Below, one piece after another: positions 39,836-54,359 of a stretch of 64,000 nt of DNA. Both the position numbers and the translations under genes were made by a program. The DNA is from Candidatus Saccharimonadota bacterium. GTDB lineage: Bacteria; Patescibacteriota; Saccharimonadia; Saccharimonadales; Saccharimonadaceae. The notes below the pieces were generated by a model. The model did no database searches, was not told where the DNA came from, and was given only the letters and a program-made list of their open reading frames with translations. The stretch's first letter is position 1, and every line of letters begins with the position of its first letter. Location of the stretch: NCBI GenBank assembly GCA_017515205.1, contig JAFWHN010000005.1, positions 13-64,012 of the forward strand, written 5' to 3'.

Positions 39836-41701
39836 ATGCAAGGATTAAAAGACCAACTTAAAAAAATTATTCAAGATTTGTATGGCCTCGATTTTGATCC
39901 CGAAGTTACTCCTGCTCCCGAGAATGTCACTGCCGATTATTCTACCAATGCACCCTTGAAACTTGCCAAAGAACTCCATAAATCTCCAATGATAATAGCA
40001 GAGGAGTTACAGAAAGCTTTTGTGAGCGTTCGCGACGACGGGAGCGAACGACGAAGCGCCGCCCGTAACGACGGGCCGGCGCGAGGAGGCGAGCAAAAGG
40101 TTTCTATAACTCCTCCTGGATTCATCAATTTCACTTTATCCGATTCTTACCTAGCAGAAAAGATTGATAGTTTATCAACTGATTTTGATCAATCTATTGT
40201 CTCTAATGATTACAAAGGTAAGACTGTGATTTGCGAGTTCAGCGATCCCAATCCTTTCAAAGTCCTTCACGTTGGTCACCTTTATACTAGTATCGTCGGT
40301 GACGCCATTTCAAATCTTTTTGAATATGCCGGCGCTAAGGTCATCCGCGCCAATTTCGGTGGTGACGTCGGTCTTCACGTGGCTAAAACCATGTATGTTC
40401 TACGGCAAAAGAATCCCAAAGAGATTCAAATCGAAGACATCTCCAGATGTTATGTCGAAGGTACCGCTCTTTATGAAGAAGATGAAAAAGCTCACCAAGA
40501 AATTACCGAGCTTAACAAAGAGATTTACAAAATCAATTCCGAAAACCTTCACGATTCTGACCTCGCTGAGTTATACTGGCAGGGCAGGGAATTATCTTAC
40601 GATTATTTCAAGAAGTTTTATGAGTCTATCGGCGTCAAGTTTGATAAGTATTATCCTGAATCTACCGTTGCGGCTCTTGGTCTAAAAACTGTCAAAGAAC
40701 AGCTAGAAAAAGGCGTCTACGAAAAAAGTGAAGGTGCTGTGATTTTCAACGGTGACAAATATGGCCTCCATACTCGCGTCTTTATTAATAGAGAAGGTGT
40801 CCCTACTTACGAAGCTAAGGATGTGGGTCTAATCTTCACTAAATGGCAAGATTATCATTTTGACAAATCTGTCGTCATTACTGGTTCCGAGCAGCTTGAT
40901 TACATGAAAGTGGTCTTAAAATCGGTCGAACAATACGCGCCCGAATTAGTTGAGCGCACCAGCCATTTAACTCACGGCCTTGTCAAACTCCCTGGTAATG
41001 TCAAAATGTCTTCTCGAAAAGGTAATTTCTTAAAAGCCGTTGACGTTCTCGATATGGTCAAAAACGAGCTAAAAACTGAGTATAACTCCGATGACGAGAT
41101 TGTCTCTCTCGCTGCTACCAAATATGCTTTCCTGAAATATAAAATGGGCGGCAACATTATCTTCGATCCGAAAGAATCCGTCAAAATGACCGGCAATTCC
41201 GGCCCATACCTGCTATATTCCGCCGTTCGTGCCGAAAAGATTCTTGAAAAGACGCAGGAGGGGCTCAAAAACAAGACACGAGTGAGCATTCACGACAACG
41301 GGAGTGAACGACGAAGCGCCACCCGTGACGACCGTCGTAGGAGCCGAGAAGACGAAAAGCTTGCTTTTCGTGTCGAGGCCACGCCCGACGGACGACCTAT
41401 GGTCGACGGGCCGGCGCGAGGAGGCGAGCGAGGGCTTGTTTTTGAGCCCTCCGAACGTGACTTATCTAAAAAGCTGTTGGACTATAAAGGAGTCTTGCAG
41501 GTCGCCGTTGCCGAAATGGCTCCGCACAAATTAGCGAATTACTTATACGAACTTGCCCAAACCTTTAGCCGTTTCTACGAGAGCTGTCCTGTAGCTGGCA
41601 GCGATCGAGAAGAGGAGCGCTTAAAGCTCGTCCAAGTCTACCTAGACACCATGACTCACGGTCTTAAAATTTTAGATATTAATATTCCGGAGGAAATGTA
41701 A
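39836..41701 (+). CDS. argS: Arginine--tRNA ligase with two in-frame repeat insertions
   Basis: PGFINF, DPNPFKVLHVGH, KMSSRKG, GNSGPYLLY; start after TATAAT + 6 nt. Confidence 0.95.
   Translation: MQGLKDQLKKIIQDLYGLDFDPEVTPAPENVTADYSTNAPLKLAKELHKSPMIIAEELQKAFVSVRDDGSERRSAARNDGPARGGEQKVSITPPGFINFTLSDSYLAEKIDSLSTDFDQSIVSNDYKGKTVICEFSDPNPFKVLHVGHLYTSIVGDAISNLFEYAGAKVIRANFGGDVGLHVAKTMYVLRQKNPKEIQIEDISRCYVEGTALYEEDEKAHQEITELNKEIYKINSENLHDSDLAELYWQGRELSYDYFKKFYESIGVKFDKYYPESTVAALGLKTVKEQLEKGVYEKSEGAVIFNGDKYGLHTRVFINREGVPTYEAKDVGLIFTKWQDYHFDKSVVITGSEQLDYMKVVLKSVEQYAPELVERTSHLTHGLVKLPGNVKMSSRKGNFLKAVDVLDMVKNELKTEYNSDDEIVSLAATKYAFLKYKMGGNIIFDPKESVKMTGNSGPYLLYSAVRAEKILEKTQEGLKNKTRVSIHDNGSERRSATRDDRRRSREDEKLAFRVEATPDGRPMVDGPARGGERGLVFEPSERDLSKKLLDYKGVLQVAVAEMAPHKLANYLYELAQTFSRFYESCPVAGSDREEERLKLVQVYLDTMTHGLKILDINIPEEM
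40022..40094 (+). repeat. GC-rich palindromic element, copy 1 (in argS)
   Basis: 73 nt; near-identical to 41282-41332 joined to 41408-41429. Confidence 0.9.
41261..41449 (+). repeat. Palindromic element copy 2 with nested 75-nt insert and 15-bp terminal inverted repeats (in argS)
   Basis: gggctcaaaaacaag (41261-41275) and cttgtttttgagccc (41435-41449) are perfect inverted repeats. Confidence 0.9.
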
Positions 41702-47482: not shown

Positions 47483-48261
47483 TGCAAGTTGTTTCTTATA
47501 TGAAAGCCCATTGGCCGTCCCATGTTAAACCAGAGTGGCAAGTAGATTTAGCGGACTATCCGGCTATCTTAAAGCAGGTGCTAGCAGATTTTACTCCTCA
47601 TGCCACCAAAAACCATCGTTTGTTTCGCATTGCTGGCATCTCTGGTTCTGGCAAAACTACTCAAATCCTTCCAGCCGTGGAGGCCTACTGTGAAAAGAAT
47701 CACCTTAGTCCAATCCTTATCGCTGCCCGACGTTTTGTAGAATATCATCCACATTACCAGGAAATTAAAGAGTATTATGGTGCCGAGAATCTGCGCAAAA
47801 TGACTGATGAGTTTTCTACCATTATGCTATTTTTGAGCTTATCTGAGCTCATTAAAAATGGCTATGATATCATTCTCGACGTGACGCTTTTAGCACCAGA
47901 AATGGAAGGCATCCTCCTAAAAATGCTTGAAAAAGAGAACTATGACTTACTAATTCTCATGGTCGCCATTTCACCTGCTGTGACAGAACACTTTTTGAAA
48001 GACCGTGCTTGGCGTCATACCAAAAAAACGGAGCAAGAATTTATCAAAGCTACCTCAGCAGCATTGCAATTTTACGCCGAGTCAAAACCCGATACCCATA
48101 TTATCGTATGGAGCGTATATGATAAATTACCAGTTTATGACGGCCCTATCAAAGATTCTCTTAAGACTTTTTCCGACTTATCTTCGTGTCAAGAATTACC
48201 AGCTCGTGACGATCCCGCTCGTCGCGATGCCAAAATCGAATATCTTGCAGAAATTAACTAG
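47482..48261 (+). CDS. Zeta-toxin-like P-loop kinase
   Basis: GISGSGKTT; RFVEYHPHYQEI resembles the zeta motif; YDIILDVT. Confidence 0.65.
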   Translation: MQVVSYMKAHWPSHVKPEWQVDLADYPAILKQVLADFTPHATKNHRLFRIAGISGSGKTTQILPAVEAYCEKNHLSPILIAARRFVEYHPHYQEIKEYYGAENLRKMTDEFSTIMLFLSLSELIKNGYDIILDVTLLAPEMEGILLKMLEKENYDLLILMVAISPAVTEHFLKDRAWRHTKKTEQEFIKATSAALQFYAESKPDTHIIVWSVYDKLPVYDGPIKDSLKTFSDLSSCQELPARDDPARRDAKIEYLAEIN

Positions 48262-50011
48262 CAATATTATAAACTGTGCCAACAAACCAGATTTCCCCAG
48301 AAGATTTATCACGAATTAAAAAGACGAACGGTTTATTTAGAGATAAATCAACTTCTTCAACTGGTACTTCCCATTCATACTCAAAATGACCCCCGCCCGT
48401 GCTCCCAGCTCCACCCATAGAAGTAGTTGCTGCAGCTTTTATCCCATCATTGCTAAAATCAATATTAGCTTTATGCATCACAAAGTCAATTCTCGGATTA
48501 TCAGACGAATTCTCGTCAGGCTCTAGCATATTAGAAAGATCTGCATTTTCTCTAGAAAAGACATCAACAATTCCAAATTTCTCCAAATCATCCTTCAGGC
48601 TTTCCATTTCATATTCAAACTTGAAAAACGGTATATCGGCAGATAATTTGGTCACTACTCCATCTTTATAACTCTGAGCTTGGTTAGCATCTTTAAGACT
48701 ATTAATTAGGCTAGTTGCTTTTTCTGCCGTTAAATCATTAATATAATTATTTAAGCTTTTTGTTTTTGGCATAATACTCACATACTGGAGGGTAGAACCA
48801 TCATATTCTTTCAAATCTTTTGCAAAGACAATTTCATCATCAGTATTATTAAAATAAAAATCAGTTGACTCGTCGACACGCCCATAATTTGATTTGAGCT
48901 CAGACATATACTTCTCTAGATCGAAAGAAAGATCAACGTCTTCAGGATTTTCAGGTGGATTTTTTCTTTGTTCCTCTAACCATTTATTGTATTCATTTTG
49001 GACTGTACTACGAATTGTTTCCTCGCCCAACTCTTTTACAATATCATATCGATTAGCACTTGCCCCAATCCTAGCAACGCTAACATCATCTTTACCGTTG
49101 AAAGTTCCTTTTGCAAAATCGTCCATTACGGCAGAAATATAGTGTGAATAAACTTCATGAGGATACCTGACAGAAAAAGTCCCTACCTTATCATTGCTTA
49201 AACAAGGCACAGATCTTTCGCCAATCGTACATTGTAACTGATTATTCCAGCTCATATCTATTGCTAGAGCATTAGTTAATAGATAATTTACTTCAGGGTT
49301 CAATGTTTCTTTATCAAATGTTTCAGGAATAATTCCCAGAGTTTTATCGCTTATCCATTTATTTGCCACATCTGGCGTATTAAAAGAATCAAATATCACA
49401 TCCGCATTGTATTTGGTTTGTATTGTATCGGTATACGTTTTCTTCACTTTTTCAGCAAAATCATTACGGATAAACATCGCATTTGCAAGAGAGCGATTTT
49501 TGCTATTAAGATAAGACTTAGGTAAATAATCGCCGATTATCCTTGTGATTTGTTCTTTAGAGTTGCCATTTGCTCCATCAGCAAGCATCGCAAGTGCATA
49601 TTTGATGGAAAGAGGGCTATAAACTAAATTATCTTCTACGTTTTCTAATCCCACAAACGCTAGGTCAAAATCGCTTAATCCATTACCTGGGATAGTCAAC
49701 TTCTCATAGTATGACAATTCTTTGGTAGTCAACTGATCATTGGCAGTTTCATCTCCACTTTCTTCTGGAAGATTAGCTAAAACCGCAGCTAATACTCCGA
49801 TTCCAATTACCAATATAGAAACTACAGATAAAACAAGAATTAATTTTTTCTTACTCTTTTTTGTAGTAGGTTGATCTGTCGCAACAATATCTGCAGGGTT
49901 CCCAGCGCTTTGAGGTTCAGTAGTAACTGATTGGTCTGGCATAGTTACAACTGATTGCGCATCTCCTAGCTGTTCACTATTATCATTCACGTTTTGATTA
50001 TTTTGATCCAT
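48254..50011 (-). CDS. Membrane-anchored serpin
   Basis: NLVYSPLSI, NALAI..W, hinge GIKAAATT, NKPFVFLIRD...FVG. Confidence 0.9.
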   Translation of the reverse strand: MDQNNQNVNDNSEQLGDAQSVVTMPDQSVTTEPQSAGNPADIVATDQPTTKKSKKKLILVLSVVSILVIGIGVLAAVLANLPEESGDETANDQLTTKELSYYEKLTIPGNGLSDFDLAFVGLENVEDNLVYSPLSIKYALAMLADGANGNSKEQITRIIGDYLPKSYLNSKNRSLANAMFIRNDFAEKVKKTYTDTIQTKYNADVIFDSFNTPDVANKWISDKTLGIIPETFDKETLNPEVNYLLTNALAIDMSWNNQLQCTIGERSVPCLSNDKVGTFSVRYPHEVYSHYISAVMDDFAKGTFNGKDDVSVARIGASANRYDIVKELGEETIRSTVQNEYNKWLEEQRKNPPENPEDVDLSFDLEKYMSELKSNYGRVDESTDFYFNNTDDEIVFAKDLKEYDGSTLQYVSIMPKTKSLNNYINDLTAEKATSLINSLKDANQAQSYKDGVVTKLSADIPFFKFEYEMESLKDDLEKFGIVDVFSRENADLSNMLEPDENSSDNPRIDFVMHKANIDFSNDGIKAAATTSMGGAGSTGGGHFEYEWEVPVEEVDLSLNKPFVFLIRDKSSGEIWFVGTVYNIAS

Positions 50012-51544: not shown

Positions 51545-51981
51545 CTACTACCGCTAATATATCCAATGTGGCTTACAAAAAAGGGAATTGGATGCGATAT
51601 ACCCTTTGGGCTCTAGCTGCCGTCTGCATCATCATCCTAATTCACACTTTTATCACTACTATGAATGGCGGTGTCTCAGCTGCTGTCCCTGAAGATTTTC
51701 GTTTTGCACTCACCGATAATTATAGCGAAGGTAGTAAACTCCGTACTACCTATTACGTATATGACGACAAAATTCTGGTAGTCGATGAAAGCGTTGATGA
51801 TAGTGGCGTCAACCGTAGTGTCATGATTTATGACGATGTCAATACTACTCCTCTCTATTTAGATTCTGAAGATACTACTGAAATTTGCGAGCTTGGCAGT
51901 TGTGCTGCCTATCCGAAGGTTCTTTCTACTATTAAAAGTTTAATTTCGCGTAAGGTGGGTCGGGAATATATAGGACTATAA
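51541..51981 (+). CDS. Hypothetical membrane protein
   Basis: Coupled to both neighbours; one TM helix; Cys pair. Confidence 0.6.
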   Translation: MTTTANISNVAYKKGNWMRYTLWALAAVCIIILIHTFITTMNGGVSAAVPEDFRFALTDNYSEGSKLRTTYYVYDDKILVVDESVDDSGVNRSVMIYDDVNTTPLYLDSEDTTEICELGSCAAYPKVLSTIKSLISRKVGREYIGL

Positions 51982-54359
51982 TGAAGCGTTTAGTATTAAT
52001 CGATGGTAAATCAGTTTTCTATCGTGGATACTATGCTATGGGCGCTCTTAGCCTCTCAGATGGCACCCCTACTGGTGGCGTTTACGGTTTTGCTGCCATT
52101 GCCATGGAGATTGTCAAAAAACTTGACCCTACCAAAGTCGTGGTAGCTTGGGACTCAAAAACTTCTACCGCCAAACGTCGTGCCATTTACCAAGATTATA
52201 AAGCTGGTCGCATTAAGCCCGGCGAAGATTTCTATACTCAAATACCTTTGCTTCAAACTTTAATTCAAGATTTAGGCTGGAGTTTTGTTGAAATTGATAA
52301 TTATGAAGCAGACGATATCATTGGGACACTAAGTCGTGAAGCCGACGAAGCCGGAGACTATGAAACTTACATTATTTCCAGCGACCTCGACATGCTCCAA
52401 ATTGTCGATAGCAATACCCATATGTGGCGTATTCTTAAAGGTTTCACTAATATTGAAAAAATTAATGTCCCCGAGCTAGAAGCTAAGTACGGCATCAAAA
52501 AGTCTCAATTCTTAGATCTTAAAGCTTTGAAAGGCGATTCTTCCGATAATATCCCAGGCGTTCCTGGCATCGGCGAGAAAACCGCTGCAAAATTATTAAA
52601 TGATTATGGTGATTTGGATAACCTTTATGAGCATCTAGATGAAATCAAGGGTTCCACCAAGACCAAACTTGAAGCAGGGAAAGATTCTGCCTATATGTCT
52701 CGTGACCTTGCTCGTATTATGTTTGACGCACCTGTTGACCTCAAAAAAATCCCTGATTTTCATTTTGACCAAGACAAAGTAATATCTGGCCTCAAAAAGC
52801 TCGAATTCAACTCCCTCATCCGCAAGGTTGACAAGGAAGCGCTCGAAAAAAATACTTTCGAGGAGCATAATCGCCGAGGGCCGGCCGCCCGTGGCGACGG
52901 GCCAGCCGGACGCGGCCCCAGAAGTAACAATGCTTCAGTGCCTGACATCATTGATTGGGACATCAAAGGCTTAATGCATAGCGACCAAACCATCGCCGAT
53001 GCAATTCTATCTGGCAAAAAATCTTTTTGGGACCTCGGCCAAGCTACCTTTTTGTTAAATCCTCTTTCGCGTGAAGAGCCACACCTTGCAGTTTTAGAAG
53101 AAGAGTACCAGCGTCAATTAACCGAATTTGCAAAAAATCCTCAACTTCTCAGTATCTATCAAGATTTTGATCTTCCACTCATCCCAATTCTATACAAAAT
53201 GGAAGATAAAGGCATGACTTTAGACTCAGATTATTTTAAAAAGCTTAAATCCGAATACGAGGAAATTATCCAGAACCTTGAACAAGAAATTTATCAATTG
53301 GCTGGTCAAGAATTAAATCTCAACTCACCCATTCAACTCTCCGAAGTGCTATTCAATAAGTTGCAACTTCCGACTAAAGGTATTAAAAAGACTACGCGGG
53401 GTTATTCTACTGGTGCTAAAGAATTAGATAAACTTCAAAATCTTCATCCTGTCATTCCCAAAATTATCGAATATCGCGAAGCTGCCAAACTTTTAAATAC
53501 TTACATTATTCCTTTGCCAGAACTTGCTGATTCGAACAATCGTATTCATACTACTTTTACTCAAAACGTTACTGCTACTGGTCGCCTTAGCTCCAAGGAT
53601 CCCAATCTCCAGAATATTCCTGTCCGCACTGACGAAGGCAAGCGTATCCGCACTGGTTTTATCGCACCGAAGGGCAAAATCTTTGTTTCCGCTGATTATT
53701 CTCAATTTGAACTCCGCCTTGCCGCCGTTCTTTCAAACGATCAGGCCCTTATTGATGATTTTAATCACGACATCGACGTTCATACCAAGACTGCCTCTGA
53801 AGCATTCAAAACTCCTTTTGCAAAAGTTACCAAGACACAACGTCGTGCTGCTAAGGTGATTAATTTTGGCATTCTTTATGGTATGAGTGTCAAAGGCTTG
53901 TCTGATGCTGCTAAAATGCCATTTAACGAAGCTAAAGATTTTATCGACAATTATTTCAAATTACGTGCACCTATTAAACAAAAATTGGAGGCTATCTTAA
54001 AACAAGCCAGGGAAGCAGGCTTCGTCGAAACTTTCTACGGCCGTCGCCGTCCTACGCCAGACGTTAAATCAAGTAATTTCCTTATCCGCCAAGCCGCTGA
54101 GCGTGCTGCTGCCAATATGCCGATTCAGGGTACCGAAGCTGATCTCATGAAACGCGCCATGATCCAAGTTGACCAGGCTTTGCCAGATGATGCTTCTCTG
54201 GTCATGCAAGTGCATGATTCTCTTATTGTGGAATGTGACGAAAAATCAGCTCAACTGGTATCCGATATTCTTAAAACCAAAATGGAAGCCATTGCTCCTG
54301 AATTAAAAATCAAACTTGCTGTTGACGTGACCACTGGCCACAACTGGGGCGAATTATAA
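51981..54359 (+). CDS. polA: DNA polymerase I (reduced 3'-5' exonuclease region)
   Basis: YEADD, GDSSDNIPGV, TGRLSS..PNLQNIP, ADYSQ.ELR, K..NFG..YG, QVHD. Confidence 0.96.
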   Translation: MKRLVLIDGKSVFYRGYYAMGALSLSDGTPTGGVYGFAAIAMEIVKKLDPTKVVVAWDSKTSTAKRRAIYQDYKAGRIKPGEDFYTQIPLLQTLIQDLGWSFVEIDNYEADDIIGTLSREADEAGDYETYIISSDLDMLQIVDSNTHMWRILKGFTNIEKINVPELEAKYGIKKSQFLDLKALKGDSSDNIPGVPGIGEKTAAKLLNDYGDLDNLYEHLDEIKGSTKTKLEAGKDSAYMSRDLARIMFDAPVDLKKIPDFHFDQDKVISGLKKLEFNSLIRKVDKEALEKNTFEEHNRRGPAARGDGPAGRGPRSNNASVPDIIDWDIKGLMHSDQTIADAILSGKKSFWDLGQATFLLNPLSREEPHLAVLEEEYQRQLTEFAKNPQLLSIYQDFDLPLIPILYKMEDKGMTLDSDYFKKLKSEYEEIIQNLEQEIYQLAGQELNLNSPIQLSEVLFNKLQLPTKGIKKTTRGYSTGAKELDKLQNLHPVIPKIIEYREAAKLLNTYIIPLPELADSNNRIHTTFTQNVTATGRLSSKDPNLQNIPVRTDEGKRIRTGFIAPKGKIFVSADYSQFELRLAAVLSNDQALIDDFNHDIDVHTKTASEAFKTPFAKVTKTQRRAAKVINFGILYGMSVKGLSDAAKMPFNEAKDFIDNYFKLRAPIKQKLEAILKQAREAGFVETFYGRRRPTPDVKSSNFLIRQAAERAAANMPIQGTEADLMKRAMIQVDQALPDDASLVMQVHDSLIVECDEKSAQLVSDILKTKMEAIAPELKIKLAVDVTTGHNWGEL
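52878..52918 (+). repeat. Palindromic element related to the argS copies (in polA)
   Basis: gccgcccgtggcgacgggccagc (52884-52906) matches argS gccgcccgtaacgacgggccggc at 20/23. Confidence 0.8.

Follow-up and report, generated by a model that had tools for sequence, protein, structure and literature searches.

An eroded copy of a lineage-specific hairpin repeat probably lies in frame within the polA gene of Candidatus Nanosyncoccus

REPs are extragenic elements of 20-40 nt that occur together with a resident RAYT (IS200-like Y1) gene. Saccharibacteria and other ultra-small episymbionts are usually called streamlined and poor in mobile DNA. Here we describe a repeat of Candidatus Nanosyncoccus, a tiny gut bacterium of the Saccharibacteria. 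Like the REP/BIME elements, it is a GC-rich imperfect palindrome that is recognised as a hairpin and has CGTC on one strand of its core. In contrast to them, its unit is about 85 nt long and mostly intragenic, and the Y1 transposase (Y1_Tnp, PF01797, IS200/RAYT) is missing here as well as in 55 of 61 genomes of the genus.

The Rickettsia palindromic elements, RPE-1 to RPE-10, measure about 150 bp and each encodes a conserved peptide (PMC10969869). As in Rickettsia, the Nanosyncoccus repeats are short, dispersed and palindromic, they are found in a bacterium that depends obligately on a host and has a small, AT-rich genome, and many copies lie in frame in unrelated housekeeping genes, where the extra peptide is compatible with the fold; a transposase is known for neither system (PMC10969869). 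Nevertheless, the Nanosyncoccus repeat belongs to another phylum, bears no apparent sequence relation to the RPEs, is shorter (about 85 nt instead of about 150 bp), and stands out by a very high GC content and by a three-way junction in which tandem G.A pairs occur. Its copies also have site-specific inverted arms of host-like composition, they use five of the six strand/frame combinations, whereas the RPE peptide is conserved, and the same linkers are reoccupied across species. We read the repeat as RPE-like, persisting only in frame in permissive linkers, the proposed relationship being one of functional analogy and not of membership.

Organellar genomes offer two further comparisons. The double-hairpin elements (DHEs) of fungal mitochondria, in Allomyces and Schizosaccharomyces (PMC10085805), are likewise GC-rich within an AT-rich reduced genome and consist of two adjacent hairpins (here P2 and P3 inside a closing stem); in both cases identical copies are present at several loci and the elements are thought to be mobile by a mechanism known for neither (PMC10085805). 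However, the DHEs are mitochondrial and, in the Schizosaccharomyces species described, located in intergenic regions and rRNA genes (PMC10085805), whereas the Nanosyncoccus element resides on a bacterial chromosome, mostly in protein-coding genes, with its closing stem lengthened by local arms. The GC clusters of yeast mitochondria (e.g., GC42) are mobile palindromes of high GC content as well, again set in an AT-rich genome, with rapid turnover, merging and shuffling of units, and a transposition mechanism unresolved for both (PMC4478555). They differ in their putative AG target-site duplication (PMC4478555), none being found for the Nanosyncoccus repeat, and in being organellar, in-frame residence in essential enzymes not being their main habitat.

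The GC-rich patch of polA

The window, i.e., the whole stretch of 64,000 nt that was analysed, has 40.9% GC and belongs to a genome of 650 kb (41% GC, 90.7% complete). The features considered here are the following:

40011..40107, + strand: argS copy 1, of a second subfamily, with its outer arms intact, AGAAAGCTTTTG / CAAAAGGTTTCT (model match and direct reading)
41282..41437, + strand: argS copy 2, composite, its long hairpin split by extra sequence (direct reading)
51981..54359, + strand: polA, the host gene, encoding DNA polymerase I of 792 aa (ORF list, translation, Pfam and 66 Saccharibacteria orthologs)
52839..52933, + strand: eroded repeat copy in its full extent on the family model (cmsearch with model R1)
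52855..52877, + strand: degenerate remnant of the TTTCGGAG junction and small hairpin, P2 (model alignment and P2 survey)
52860..52925, + strand: GC-rich patch as first reported, encoding EEHNRRGPAARGDGPAGRGPRS (composition and translation)
52878..52918, + strand: surviving long hairpin, P3, GGGCCGGCCGCCCGT, loop GGCG, ACGGGCCAGCCGGACGCGGCCC (DNA fold, model alignment and identity to the UvrB copy)

The initial annotation had placed a GC-rich patch between the 5'-exonuclease and the polymerase of PolA, and the protein domains bear this out. The 66 nt at 52860-52925 (GAGGAGCATAATCGCCGAGGGCCGGCCGCCCGTGGCGACGGGCCAGCCGGACGCGGCCCCAGAAGT) contain 76% GC and are in frame with the 792-aa polA ORF, where they encode RRGPAARGDGPAGRGPR as part of the linker that follows the 5'-nuclease domain. 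According to Pfam, the 5'-nuclease domains cover residues 3-255 (5_3_exonuc at 173-255) and the family A polymerase domain (DNA_pol_A) residues 417-791, the patch-encoded residues 294-315 falling in the inter-domain region. This linker is permissive, since its length varies between 9 and 90 residues across orthologs. The peptide of the insert is rich in Arg, Gly and Pro, and GPAARGDGPAGR is an example of a peptide from an insert in PolA.

The similarity to argS, proposed from a 23-nt core, an outer stem and a shared reading frame, was confirmed. The core at 52884 (GCCGCCCGTGGCGACGGGCCAGC) matches that of argS copy 1 at 40058 (GCCGCCCGTAACGACGGGCCGGC) in 20 of 23 positions; the outer stem is present as GGGCCG (52878-52883) and CGGCCC (52913-52918); and the pattern gccgcccgtNNcgacgggcc has two matches in the window, against none in 100 shuffles. 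Both polA and argS copy 1 read AAR.DGPA, although this common frame is not a property of the family, which uses five of the six strand/frame combinations. The two argS copies are in frame in ArgRS. Copy 1 scores 29 bits against the family model (E 2.5e-6), and copy 2 gave no match to it at E <= 1, its core pattern being matched with two mismatches at genome position C6:41334.

With a covariance model (R1) built from copies other than this one, cmsearch gives the polA site 52.5 bits (E ~1e-13) over model positions 1-100. The polA patch belongs to the same family as the argS elements, although to a different subfamily from the argS copies. The extent initially given needs correction, the recognisable copy spanning about 52839-52933 in an incomplete state. 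Read in frame, the eroded copy accounts for about 30 residues of linker. In the model alignment, the closing stem has five of its six pairs broken, and 5 nt are deleted. The P2 remnant reads CTTTCGAGGAGCATAATCGCCGA and its hairpin is gone, the segment AGGAGCATAATCGC folding to nothing in the P2 survey; the arms are also absent, the arm score of 5 being at the control level. The tip of P3 is CCCGT-GGCG-ACGGG, and the core is identical in 29 of 30 positions to the UvrB copy, its nearest relative in the same genome. The polA copy thus looks old and eroded, with the long hairpin alone retained. Overall, this part of polA probably derives from a non-coding hairpin repeat specific to the Nanosyncoccus lineage, of which it would be an old and partly eroded copy. 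Translation of the insert would follow from the universal preservation of the frame.

Structure, hosts and turnover of the repeat

The copied unit is about 85 nt long, with about 71% GC, and one of its strands folds into a three-way junction, which is the minimum-energy fold of the intact copies. The closing stem, (T)TCGAGGG...CCCGAGA(A), contains tandem G.A pairs and encloses a small hairpin (P2), capped by a tetraloop, and a long hairpin of 15 bp whose tip is CCCGT-GNCG-ACGGG. In the alignment fitted to the family model, on which covariation was counted, 90.6% of the cells of the long hairpin are paired, 12 of the 15 pairs show changes on both sides, and there are 146 double-change cells, compared with 50 +/- 5.5 in shuffled data and 13-31 with slid partners. 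P2 also covaries (GGT/ACC, GGC/GCC, GCCT/AGGC and GCGC/GCGC). The + strand gives the better fold in 58 of 62 copies, with 129 G.A mismatches against 18 C.T. The wobble test for structure at the RNA level gave no signal (G.T 25 vs. A.C 18; mRNA strand 13 vs. antisense 17), nor was there a significant relation between the folding strand and replication (C-rich strand in 13 of 18 copies). The covariation of the stems could be a mutational by-product of hairpin-templated repair instead of proof of a selected structure. At gathering thresholds, Rfam retrieved only four tRNAs in the window and, therefore, the repeat is not a described RNA family.

Only a closing-stem motif of 5-9 nt (TCGAGGG/CCCGAGA) is conserved across copies, the longer inverted arms being copy-specific. 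Complementary arms of this kind were found in 35 of 41 copies. Their GC content (0.42-0.45, vs. 0.71 in the core) is similar to that of the host, and comparisons between filled and empty sites locate them at host positions. Their origin is mixed, however, both short arms of L127 having the look of new insertions.

The family model retrieves 18 matches in the 650 kb genome, i.e., about 18 copies. The repeat was found in 105 of the 121 sampled genomes of the genus, with copy numbers that reach 30 or more per genome. With the thresholds applied, two of the 160 genera of the class gave matches, only one of them besides its own. That the family is dispersed and tolerated in linkers, as initially suggested, is supported by its hosts, unrelated housekeeping genes that it occupies in frame and mostly between Pfam domains: in this genome LepA, PriA, GatA, GatB, UvrB, MnmA, XseA, two methyltransferases, ArgRS and PolA. 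About 13 of the 18 copies lie inside housekeeping ORFs and, in two sister genomes, all 23 copies are within ORFs of at least 180 aa. The strand/frame combinations used include those reading PVTTG, ARxDGPA, GPSPRAA and APVVTG, together with one more. Compared with empty orthologous sites, the inserts measure 81-102 nt, every one of them a multiple of three.

The peptide of the polA patch was found in none of the 66 PolA orthologs, so that the family reading withstood the refutation proposed in the initial annotation, and other copies of the family occupy the same linker in 27 of them (22 sense and 5 antisense, in several frames), the remainder being without a model match. L004 and L006 have near-identical PolA and yet different elements, with changes in subfamily, arms and orientation. 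An in-situ inversion was therefore rejected for this pair, which is interpreted as a replacement because the subfamily and the arms differ; inversion is possible for L006 relative to L063, L021 and L058. The loops of LepA and UvrB display the same turnover as the PolA linker, and at an orthologous LepA site the copies of three genomes are just 54-82% identical. In contrast, unrelated genes within one genome can have cores that are 100% identical over 71 nt, located between unrelated arms. At several sites where G000 has no copy, G011 or G012 has one whose core is identical to those at other loci of the same genome. The mobility proposed for the family, or recent copying, is thus supported indirectly by identical cores at unrelated genes, by differing elements in near-identical PolA and by filled and empty orthologous sites. 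UvrB was also considered as a clean empty-site test, with an ambiguous outcome, as the seemingly empty relatives may bear deletion scars.

Mobilisation and alternative explanations

The search for a mobiliser covered two enzyme families, Y1_Tnp and RVT_1 (PF00078), neither of which was found in this genome. An IS200/RAYT transposase was rejected as the resident mobiliser given its absence here and in most of the genus. RVT_1 was found in 31 of 41 genomes of the genus but not in G000, G011 and G012; as these three hold near-identical or identical cores at unrelated loci, a reverse transcriptase was rejected as a requirement. Beyond the palindrome, direct repeats have a mean maximum length of 1.53 nt, compared with 1.57 nt in mismatched controls, giving no indication of a target-site duplication. 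A master copy in the sister genus was rejected too: its paired copies are simple hairpins located between genes, one instance being the groES-groEL spacer, and they flank no ORF. Nevertheless, a mobilising gene could be missing because the genome is 90.7% complete, and the mobiliser could act in trans from a phage or from the host bacterium.

From these comparisons we infer that new copies would arise by DNA-level copying between sites. The likeliest route would be template switching or gene conversion at the hairpins through the cell's own replication and repair enzymes, because a dedicated transposase was not found in the genome. The sequence adjacent to a copy would be converted into a site-specific inverted repeat, lengthening the closing stem. 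Copies would end up in genes, because the genome is almost all coding, and selection would retain those whose length is a multiple of three and that are stop-free in the frame used, in permissive loops and inter-domain linkers, several frames probably being left open by the high GC. Through translation, the polA copy would add residues rich in Arg, Gly and Pro to the linker that follows the 5'-nuclease domain; it has since lost the 5' half of its closing stem, the small hairpin and the outer arms.

A stronger version, which we regard as doubtful, is that the repeat is a transposase-free mobile DNA whose junction hairpin copies itself by template switching, while snap-back or hairpin-templated synthesis rewrites the flanks into an inverted repeat and matches its own stems. 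If true, the compensatory changes and the site-specific arms would be products of the copying chemistry and not of selection, and a self-propagating palindrome would exist inside the essential genes of an ultra-small genome.

Among the alternatives, the repeat could be a conventional non-autonomous transposon (MITE or REP-like), moved in trans by a transposase that is undetected here or is encoded on a phage, a plasmid or in another strain. The identical cores at unrelated loci would be expected from such an element, the inverted termini conserved among copies (GGGRC/GYCCC), though short, look like terminal inverted repeats, a few of the larger Nanosyncoccus genomes encode Y1 transposases, and CGTC, described as the tag of one REP superfamily (PMC3733652), is found on the minus strand of the core. 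However, the repeat is found in far more genomes of the genus than Y1_Tnp (105 of 121 have the former, 55 of 61 are devoid of the latter), no target-site duplication was found, the arms are specific to the copy and not to the element, and most copies are intragenic, unlike REPs; this origin is therefore unlikely.

Rather unlikely as well is that the family is no longer mobile, the copies in polA, LepA and UvrB deriving from single ancient insertions, with decay in place, inversion between the arms and conversion among resident copies accounting for all of their present variety. Arms at the same site are indeed homologous across species and found in both orientations (L006 vs. L063, L021 and L058, and the LepA arms), the position of the window copy is common to the sister species L058 and L030, and there is a partial grouping of the cores by genome, consistent with gene conversion. 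Such a history does not account for the G011 and G012 sites that are empty in G000 and whose cores match other loci of the same genome, nor for the differences between L004 and L006, and the conversion of a core into a never-occupied site would itself be mobility.

Retention of the insert because it serves PolA itself, whether as a linker peptide rich in Arg and Gly that binds nucleic acids or as an mRNA hairpin at which ribosomes pause between domains, is very improbable. The clustering of copies at domain boundaries, the Arg/Gly/Pro-rich peptide and the unchanged patch in two strains about 1% apart agree with a function, but the orthologs present other frames, the other strand or nothing at the PolA linker, the same peptide (AARGDGPAGRAPR) is found in an unrelated G012 gene, the wobble pairs are not biased to the mRNA strand (13 vs. 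17) and little of the structure survives in the polA copy. The second of these strains, the sole conspecific one found, is represented by an independent assembly in ENA, with 99% identity across 17.7 kb; as the 300 nt around the patch are invariant between the two, the comparison carries no signal on the patch itself. Finally, an assembly or binning artefact joining foreign GC-rich reads into an AT-rich contig, as the jump from 41% to 76% GC over 66 nt might evoke, is extremely improbable, since the reading frame is preserved, the patch is identical in this independent assembly, and related copies are found in MAGs from many studies.

A palindromic repeat inside essential enzymes

Taken alone, the polA patch is a modest result, one old and decayed member of a family. 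The family shows that the repeat of one genus resides inside essential enzymes, namely PolA, ArgRS, LeuRS, LepA, UvrB, GatA/B and PriA, where it reshapes inter-domain linkers and, consequently, affects the protein lengths and alignments of the clade; its copies also flag permissive insertion sites in conserved enzymes. The large number of genomes, the cores that are identical between loci and the lack of a resident transposase allow the long-standing question of the movement of such palindromic elements to be tested by comparative genomics. The Nanosyncoccus repeat provides, beside Rickettsia, a second independent bacterial case in which to ask how selfish DNA becomes protein sequence.

The polA patch and the repeat family to which it belongs

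The GC-rich patch at window 52860-52925 (66 nt, 76% GC; the window overall has 40.9% GC) is in frame within a polA gene, and the peptide that it encodes, EEHNRRGPAARGDGPAGRGPRS, corresponds to PolA residues 294-315, immediately C-terminal to the 5'-nuclease domain.

51981-54359, + strand: polA ORF, 792 residues, DNA polymerase I by Pfam, with the patch in frame
PolA residues 3-255: 5'-nuclease domains (Pfam)
PolA residues 417-791: family A polymerase domain (Pfam)

The initial annotation had described a GC-rich, in-frame patch at the exonuclease/polymerase linker that shares a core and a reading frame with copies in argS, and these observations were confirmed. The best 23-mer match between the patch and argS copy 1 (window 40011-40107) is 20/23, both are read in the AAR.DGPA frame, and the outer gggccg/cggccc stem is present as GGGCCG at 52878-52883 and CGGCCC at 52913-52918, on either side of the core. 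The core pattern given in that annotation has two matches in the window and none in 100 shuffles.

A covariance model of the repeat (R1) was trained on 18 copies, 11 from the genome holding the window (G000) and seven from PolA linkers of other species. It matches the polA site with 52.5 bits (E about 1e-13, window 52839-52933) and recovers 18 sites in G000 (650 kb, nine contigs, 41% GC, estimated 90.7% complete), in which a scan for GC-rich islands and the core CCCGTnnCGACGGG found ~19 related sites. The patch is therefore a further in-frame member of a dispersed family, and its reading as a copy of a mobile family tolerated in linkers is supported. PolA orthologs assign the lineage to Candidatus Nanosyncoccus / Saccharibacteria, gut bacteria of ruminants and other hosts. 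R1 copies are present in 105 of the 121 sampled genomes of the genus, with copy numbers from 1 to 33 or more, and across the class (301 genomes) matches are confined to two of 160 genera, the second being a sister genus, where copies are weaker and intergenic. In a full-text search of a collection smaller than the whole literature, no account of repeats of this type in Saccharibacteria turned up.

Regarding the host gene, Pfam gives no match to a 3'-5' exonuclease domain in PolA (window 51981-54359) between residues 256 and 416. The proofreading domain appears vestigial, which could be relevant to hairpin-templated mutagenesis. The patch is unchanged in a conspecific contig that is 99% identical over 17.7 kb. 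In the 5'-nuclease domain (window 52214-52369), ~45 clustered differences separate the two strains, including an 18-nt indel (ADEAGD------YETY versus ADETLDKEGNCEYETF), while the remainder of polA is nearly identical; this cluster resembles a short tract of recombination. A 585-aa ORF (window 48254-50011, - strand; L153:6274-8031), located two genes upstream of polA, has a precomputed Pfam Serpin match and adjoins a Zeta_toxin-domain gene in the gene table of the conspecific contig. A serpin is unusual for an episymbiont genome of 650 kb.

Fold and arms of intact copies

The minimum-energy structure of intact copies is a three-way junction with the following parts:

Outer stem: outermost, copy-specific sequence
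P1, closing stem: conserved (T)TCGAGGG...CCCGAGA(A), the opposed CGAG motifs giving tandem G.A pairs
Junction: TTTCGGAG, inside P1
P2, small hairpin: tetraloop cap, between junction and spacer
Spacer: RATTAG, between P2 and P3
P3, long hairpin: 15 bp, tip CCCGT-GNCG-ACGGG

P2 stems covary (GGT-TACG-ACC, GGC-TGCT-GCC, GCCT-GGCA-AGGC, GCGC-GGCA-GCGC). In P3, 90.6% of cells are paired over 41 copies and 12 of the 15 pairs vary at both positions; double changes number 146 cells, compared with 50 +/- 5.5 in shuffles and 13-31 with slid partners, in an alignment that is model-fitted and favours structure. Unconstrained RNAalifold on the first alignment also recovered P3, with 11/15 pairs compensated. 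The fold is strand-specific, since G.A mismatches far exceed C.T (129 vs 18) and the + strand is more stable in 58/62 copies, under RNA as well as DNA parameters. The stabler-folding strand is independent of the sense strand of the host gene, wobble counts carry no RNA-type signal (G.T 25 vs A.C 18; 13 on the mRNA strand vs 17 on the other), and copy orientation shows no significant relation to GC skew (13/18). An extra insert of ~33 nt, read as ...APWDADDLWSTGG..., occurs within P3 or P2 at four loci (L024:1386-1518, L059:1518-1650, L015:1267-1400 and L030:1330-1610) and likewise in argS copy 2 (window 41282-41437) at about 41340-41410; these are elements nested in elements or a recurrent internal module.

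In 35/41 copies, the inverted arms flanking the core score above the 95th percentile of controls with mismatched partners, and arm GC content is genome-like (0.42-0.45; core, 0.71). Arms of identical-core copies have nothing in common beyond the closing-stem motif. Measured against orthologous sites that are empty, the inserts span 81-102 nt (81, 84, 90, 90, 93, 99, 99 and 102) and are barely longer than the conserved unit (about 84-88 nt); therefore, the variable arms lie mostly at host-sequence positions. The distal left arm of L141, a copy in genome G011, is GGCTCCTCT and corresponds to codons of the host gene (cat tct tct) in the empty ortholog, while its right arm, AGAGGCGCC, is new and an inverted copy of the left. 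Two copies in genome G012 differ from this: both arms of L130 occupy host positions and seem to have been converted in part (gat gat gtc gtt to gat gat gcc ttt; aaa aat ctt gtc to gaa aac ggc atc), and both short arms of L127 look newly inserted. From these comparisons, which support the idea but give a mixed picture, we infer that arms are made from local sequence during or after insertion. Near-identical G011 copies carry paired long-stem changes (CACGAC/GTCGTG, CACAAC/GTTGTG, CACGGC/GCCGTG), suggesting that one hairpin side may be rewritable from the other; template switching at quasipalindromes is a known precedent for the principle. If so, covariation in the repeat need not mean selection.

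Age of the polA copy, residence in genes and turnover

The polA patch is an old, decayed member of the family. The R1 alignment shows disruption of 5/6 P1 pairs and the loss of five junction bases; the P2 region (AGGAGCATAATCGC) has lost its folding, and the flanks show no arm complementarity (score 5, the level of mismatched-partner controls; family median 15), leaving P3 as the sole surviving part. The polA core is 29/30 identical to the uvrB copy of G000, with an overall core identity of only 0.70, and the copy falls in the "long-form" subfamily, the argS copies in another. In the PolA tree, the window clusters with orthologs L058 and L030 (support 100/100), each of which has a copy that matches in position and orientation but has different stems; therefore, the insertion probably predates the split of these three species.

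The linker itself, bounded by conserved KKLEFNSLIRK and IIDWDIKxLMH, ranges from about 9 to 90 residues in 66 orthologs, 27 of which carry R1 copies there (22 sense, 5 antisense), the others giving no match. The peptide of the patch, whose presence in orthologs would have counted against the initial annotation, occurs in none of the 66, an outcome in favour of that annotation. The subfamily of the polA copy, read in the same frame, yields AARGDGPAGRAPR in an unrelated G012 gene, a recurrence showing that the peptide derives from the element and not from the history of PolA. In the near-identical PolA genes L001 and L002, a ~22-residue tandem duplication in the linker, VGEEKVWQDPPRPRDSVVLNSS, distinguishes the latter; it is GC-rich, yet has no R1 match.

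Host genes in G000 encode LepA, a TrmA-like methyltransferase, PriA, GatB, GatA, UvrB, MnmA, XseA and PolA, with two copies each in ArgRS and an RNA methyltransferase; about five copies are intergenic. Genic copies are mostly between Pfam domains, as in LepA (G domain and domain II), PriA (3'-binding domain and helicase) and GatB (its two domains). In two sister genomes, every one of the 23 copies falls within an ORF of 180 residues or more (16 sense, 7 antisense). Copies use five of the six strand/frame combinations; the frame common to polA and argS, although real for these genes, is thus one option of several and not a family trait. The inserts are presumably translated, since removal from the mRNA would leave no reason for universal frame retention. 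Four intergenic copies (G000:C9:86761-86858, 147661-147760, 202686-202786 and 209130-209227) have A-rich left arms and T-rich right arms, so that each full structure looks like an intrinsic terminator for both directions, tipped by the repeat.

Occupancy of these sites turns over. PolA of L004 and L006 is almost identical (branch lengths 0.012 and 0.006) and their elements differ in subfamily, arms and orientation, which is opposite. The LepA linker and the UvrB loop have a short canonical loop in outgroups and some genus members, and copies in either orientation elsewhere. Within one genome, 71-nt cores are 100% identical at unrelated loci (L126/L127 and L130/L131 in G012; L134/L141 in G011), with arms no more alike than chance, while identity among the orthologous LepA-site copies of three genomes is only 54-82%. 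Several of the identical-core loci are empty in G000. Together, linker turnover, identical cores at unrelated loci and empty sites show recent copying between sites, and they support the mobility proposed in the initial annotation.

Search for a mobiliser and relation to known systems

No resident transposase was found in a search of the Y1 and reverse transcriptase families. Y1 (IS200/RAYT) transposases are absent from G000 (90.7% complete) and from 55/61 genus genomes, and reverse transcriptases from G000, G011 and G012, though they are common in the genus: RVT_1 genes occur in 31/41 sampled genomes, mostly as ORFs of about 380-400 aa, a size that would fit retron- or diversity-generating-retroelement-type enzymes. 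Examples are:

G014:C40:783-1442: RVT_1 gene
G004:C6:216549-217253: RVT_1 gene

No target-site duplication was found at copies, and the sister-genus copies flank no ORF. Intergenic copies suggest a possible terminator- or processing-type role. In G363, of the sister genus, two oppositely oriented copies (L148:990-1330) follow the stop of one gene and precede another, which starts MAKKIFYDEDAR and resembles groEL.

The Nanosyncoccus repeat is not a REP/RAYT system and, in having no target-site duplication, departs from a typical MITE. Fungal mitochondrial GC-rich double-hairpin elements (PMC10085805) and GC clusters, which have a putative target-site duplication (PMC4478555), resemble the repeat structurally but are organellar. 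Functionally, the Nanosyncoccus repeat comes closest to the palindromic element of Rickettsia, a small bacterium that depends on its host; that element often sits in frame within metabolic genes and is of unknown mechanism (PMC10969869), and both repeats are palindromic and often in frame. However, the fixed peptide of the Rickettsia element is not found in the Nanosyncoccus repeat, and the likeness is one of features, so we claim analogy rather than membership.

The Nanosyncoccus repeat belongs with a known kind, the in-frame palindromic repeats, in which it is unusual for its three-way-junction fold, tandem G.A motifs and arms probably made of local sequence, as well as for the repeated occupation of the same linkers with no resident transposase found. 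The interest rests with this repeat family rather than with the polA patch.
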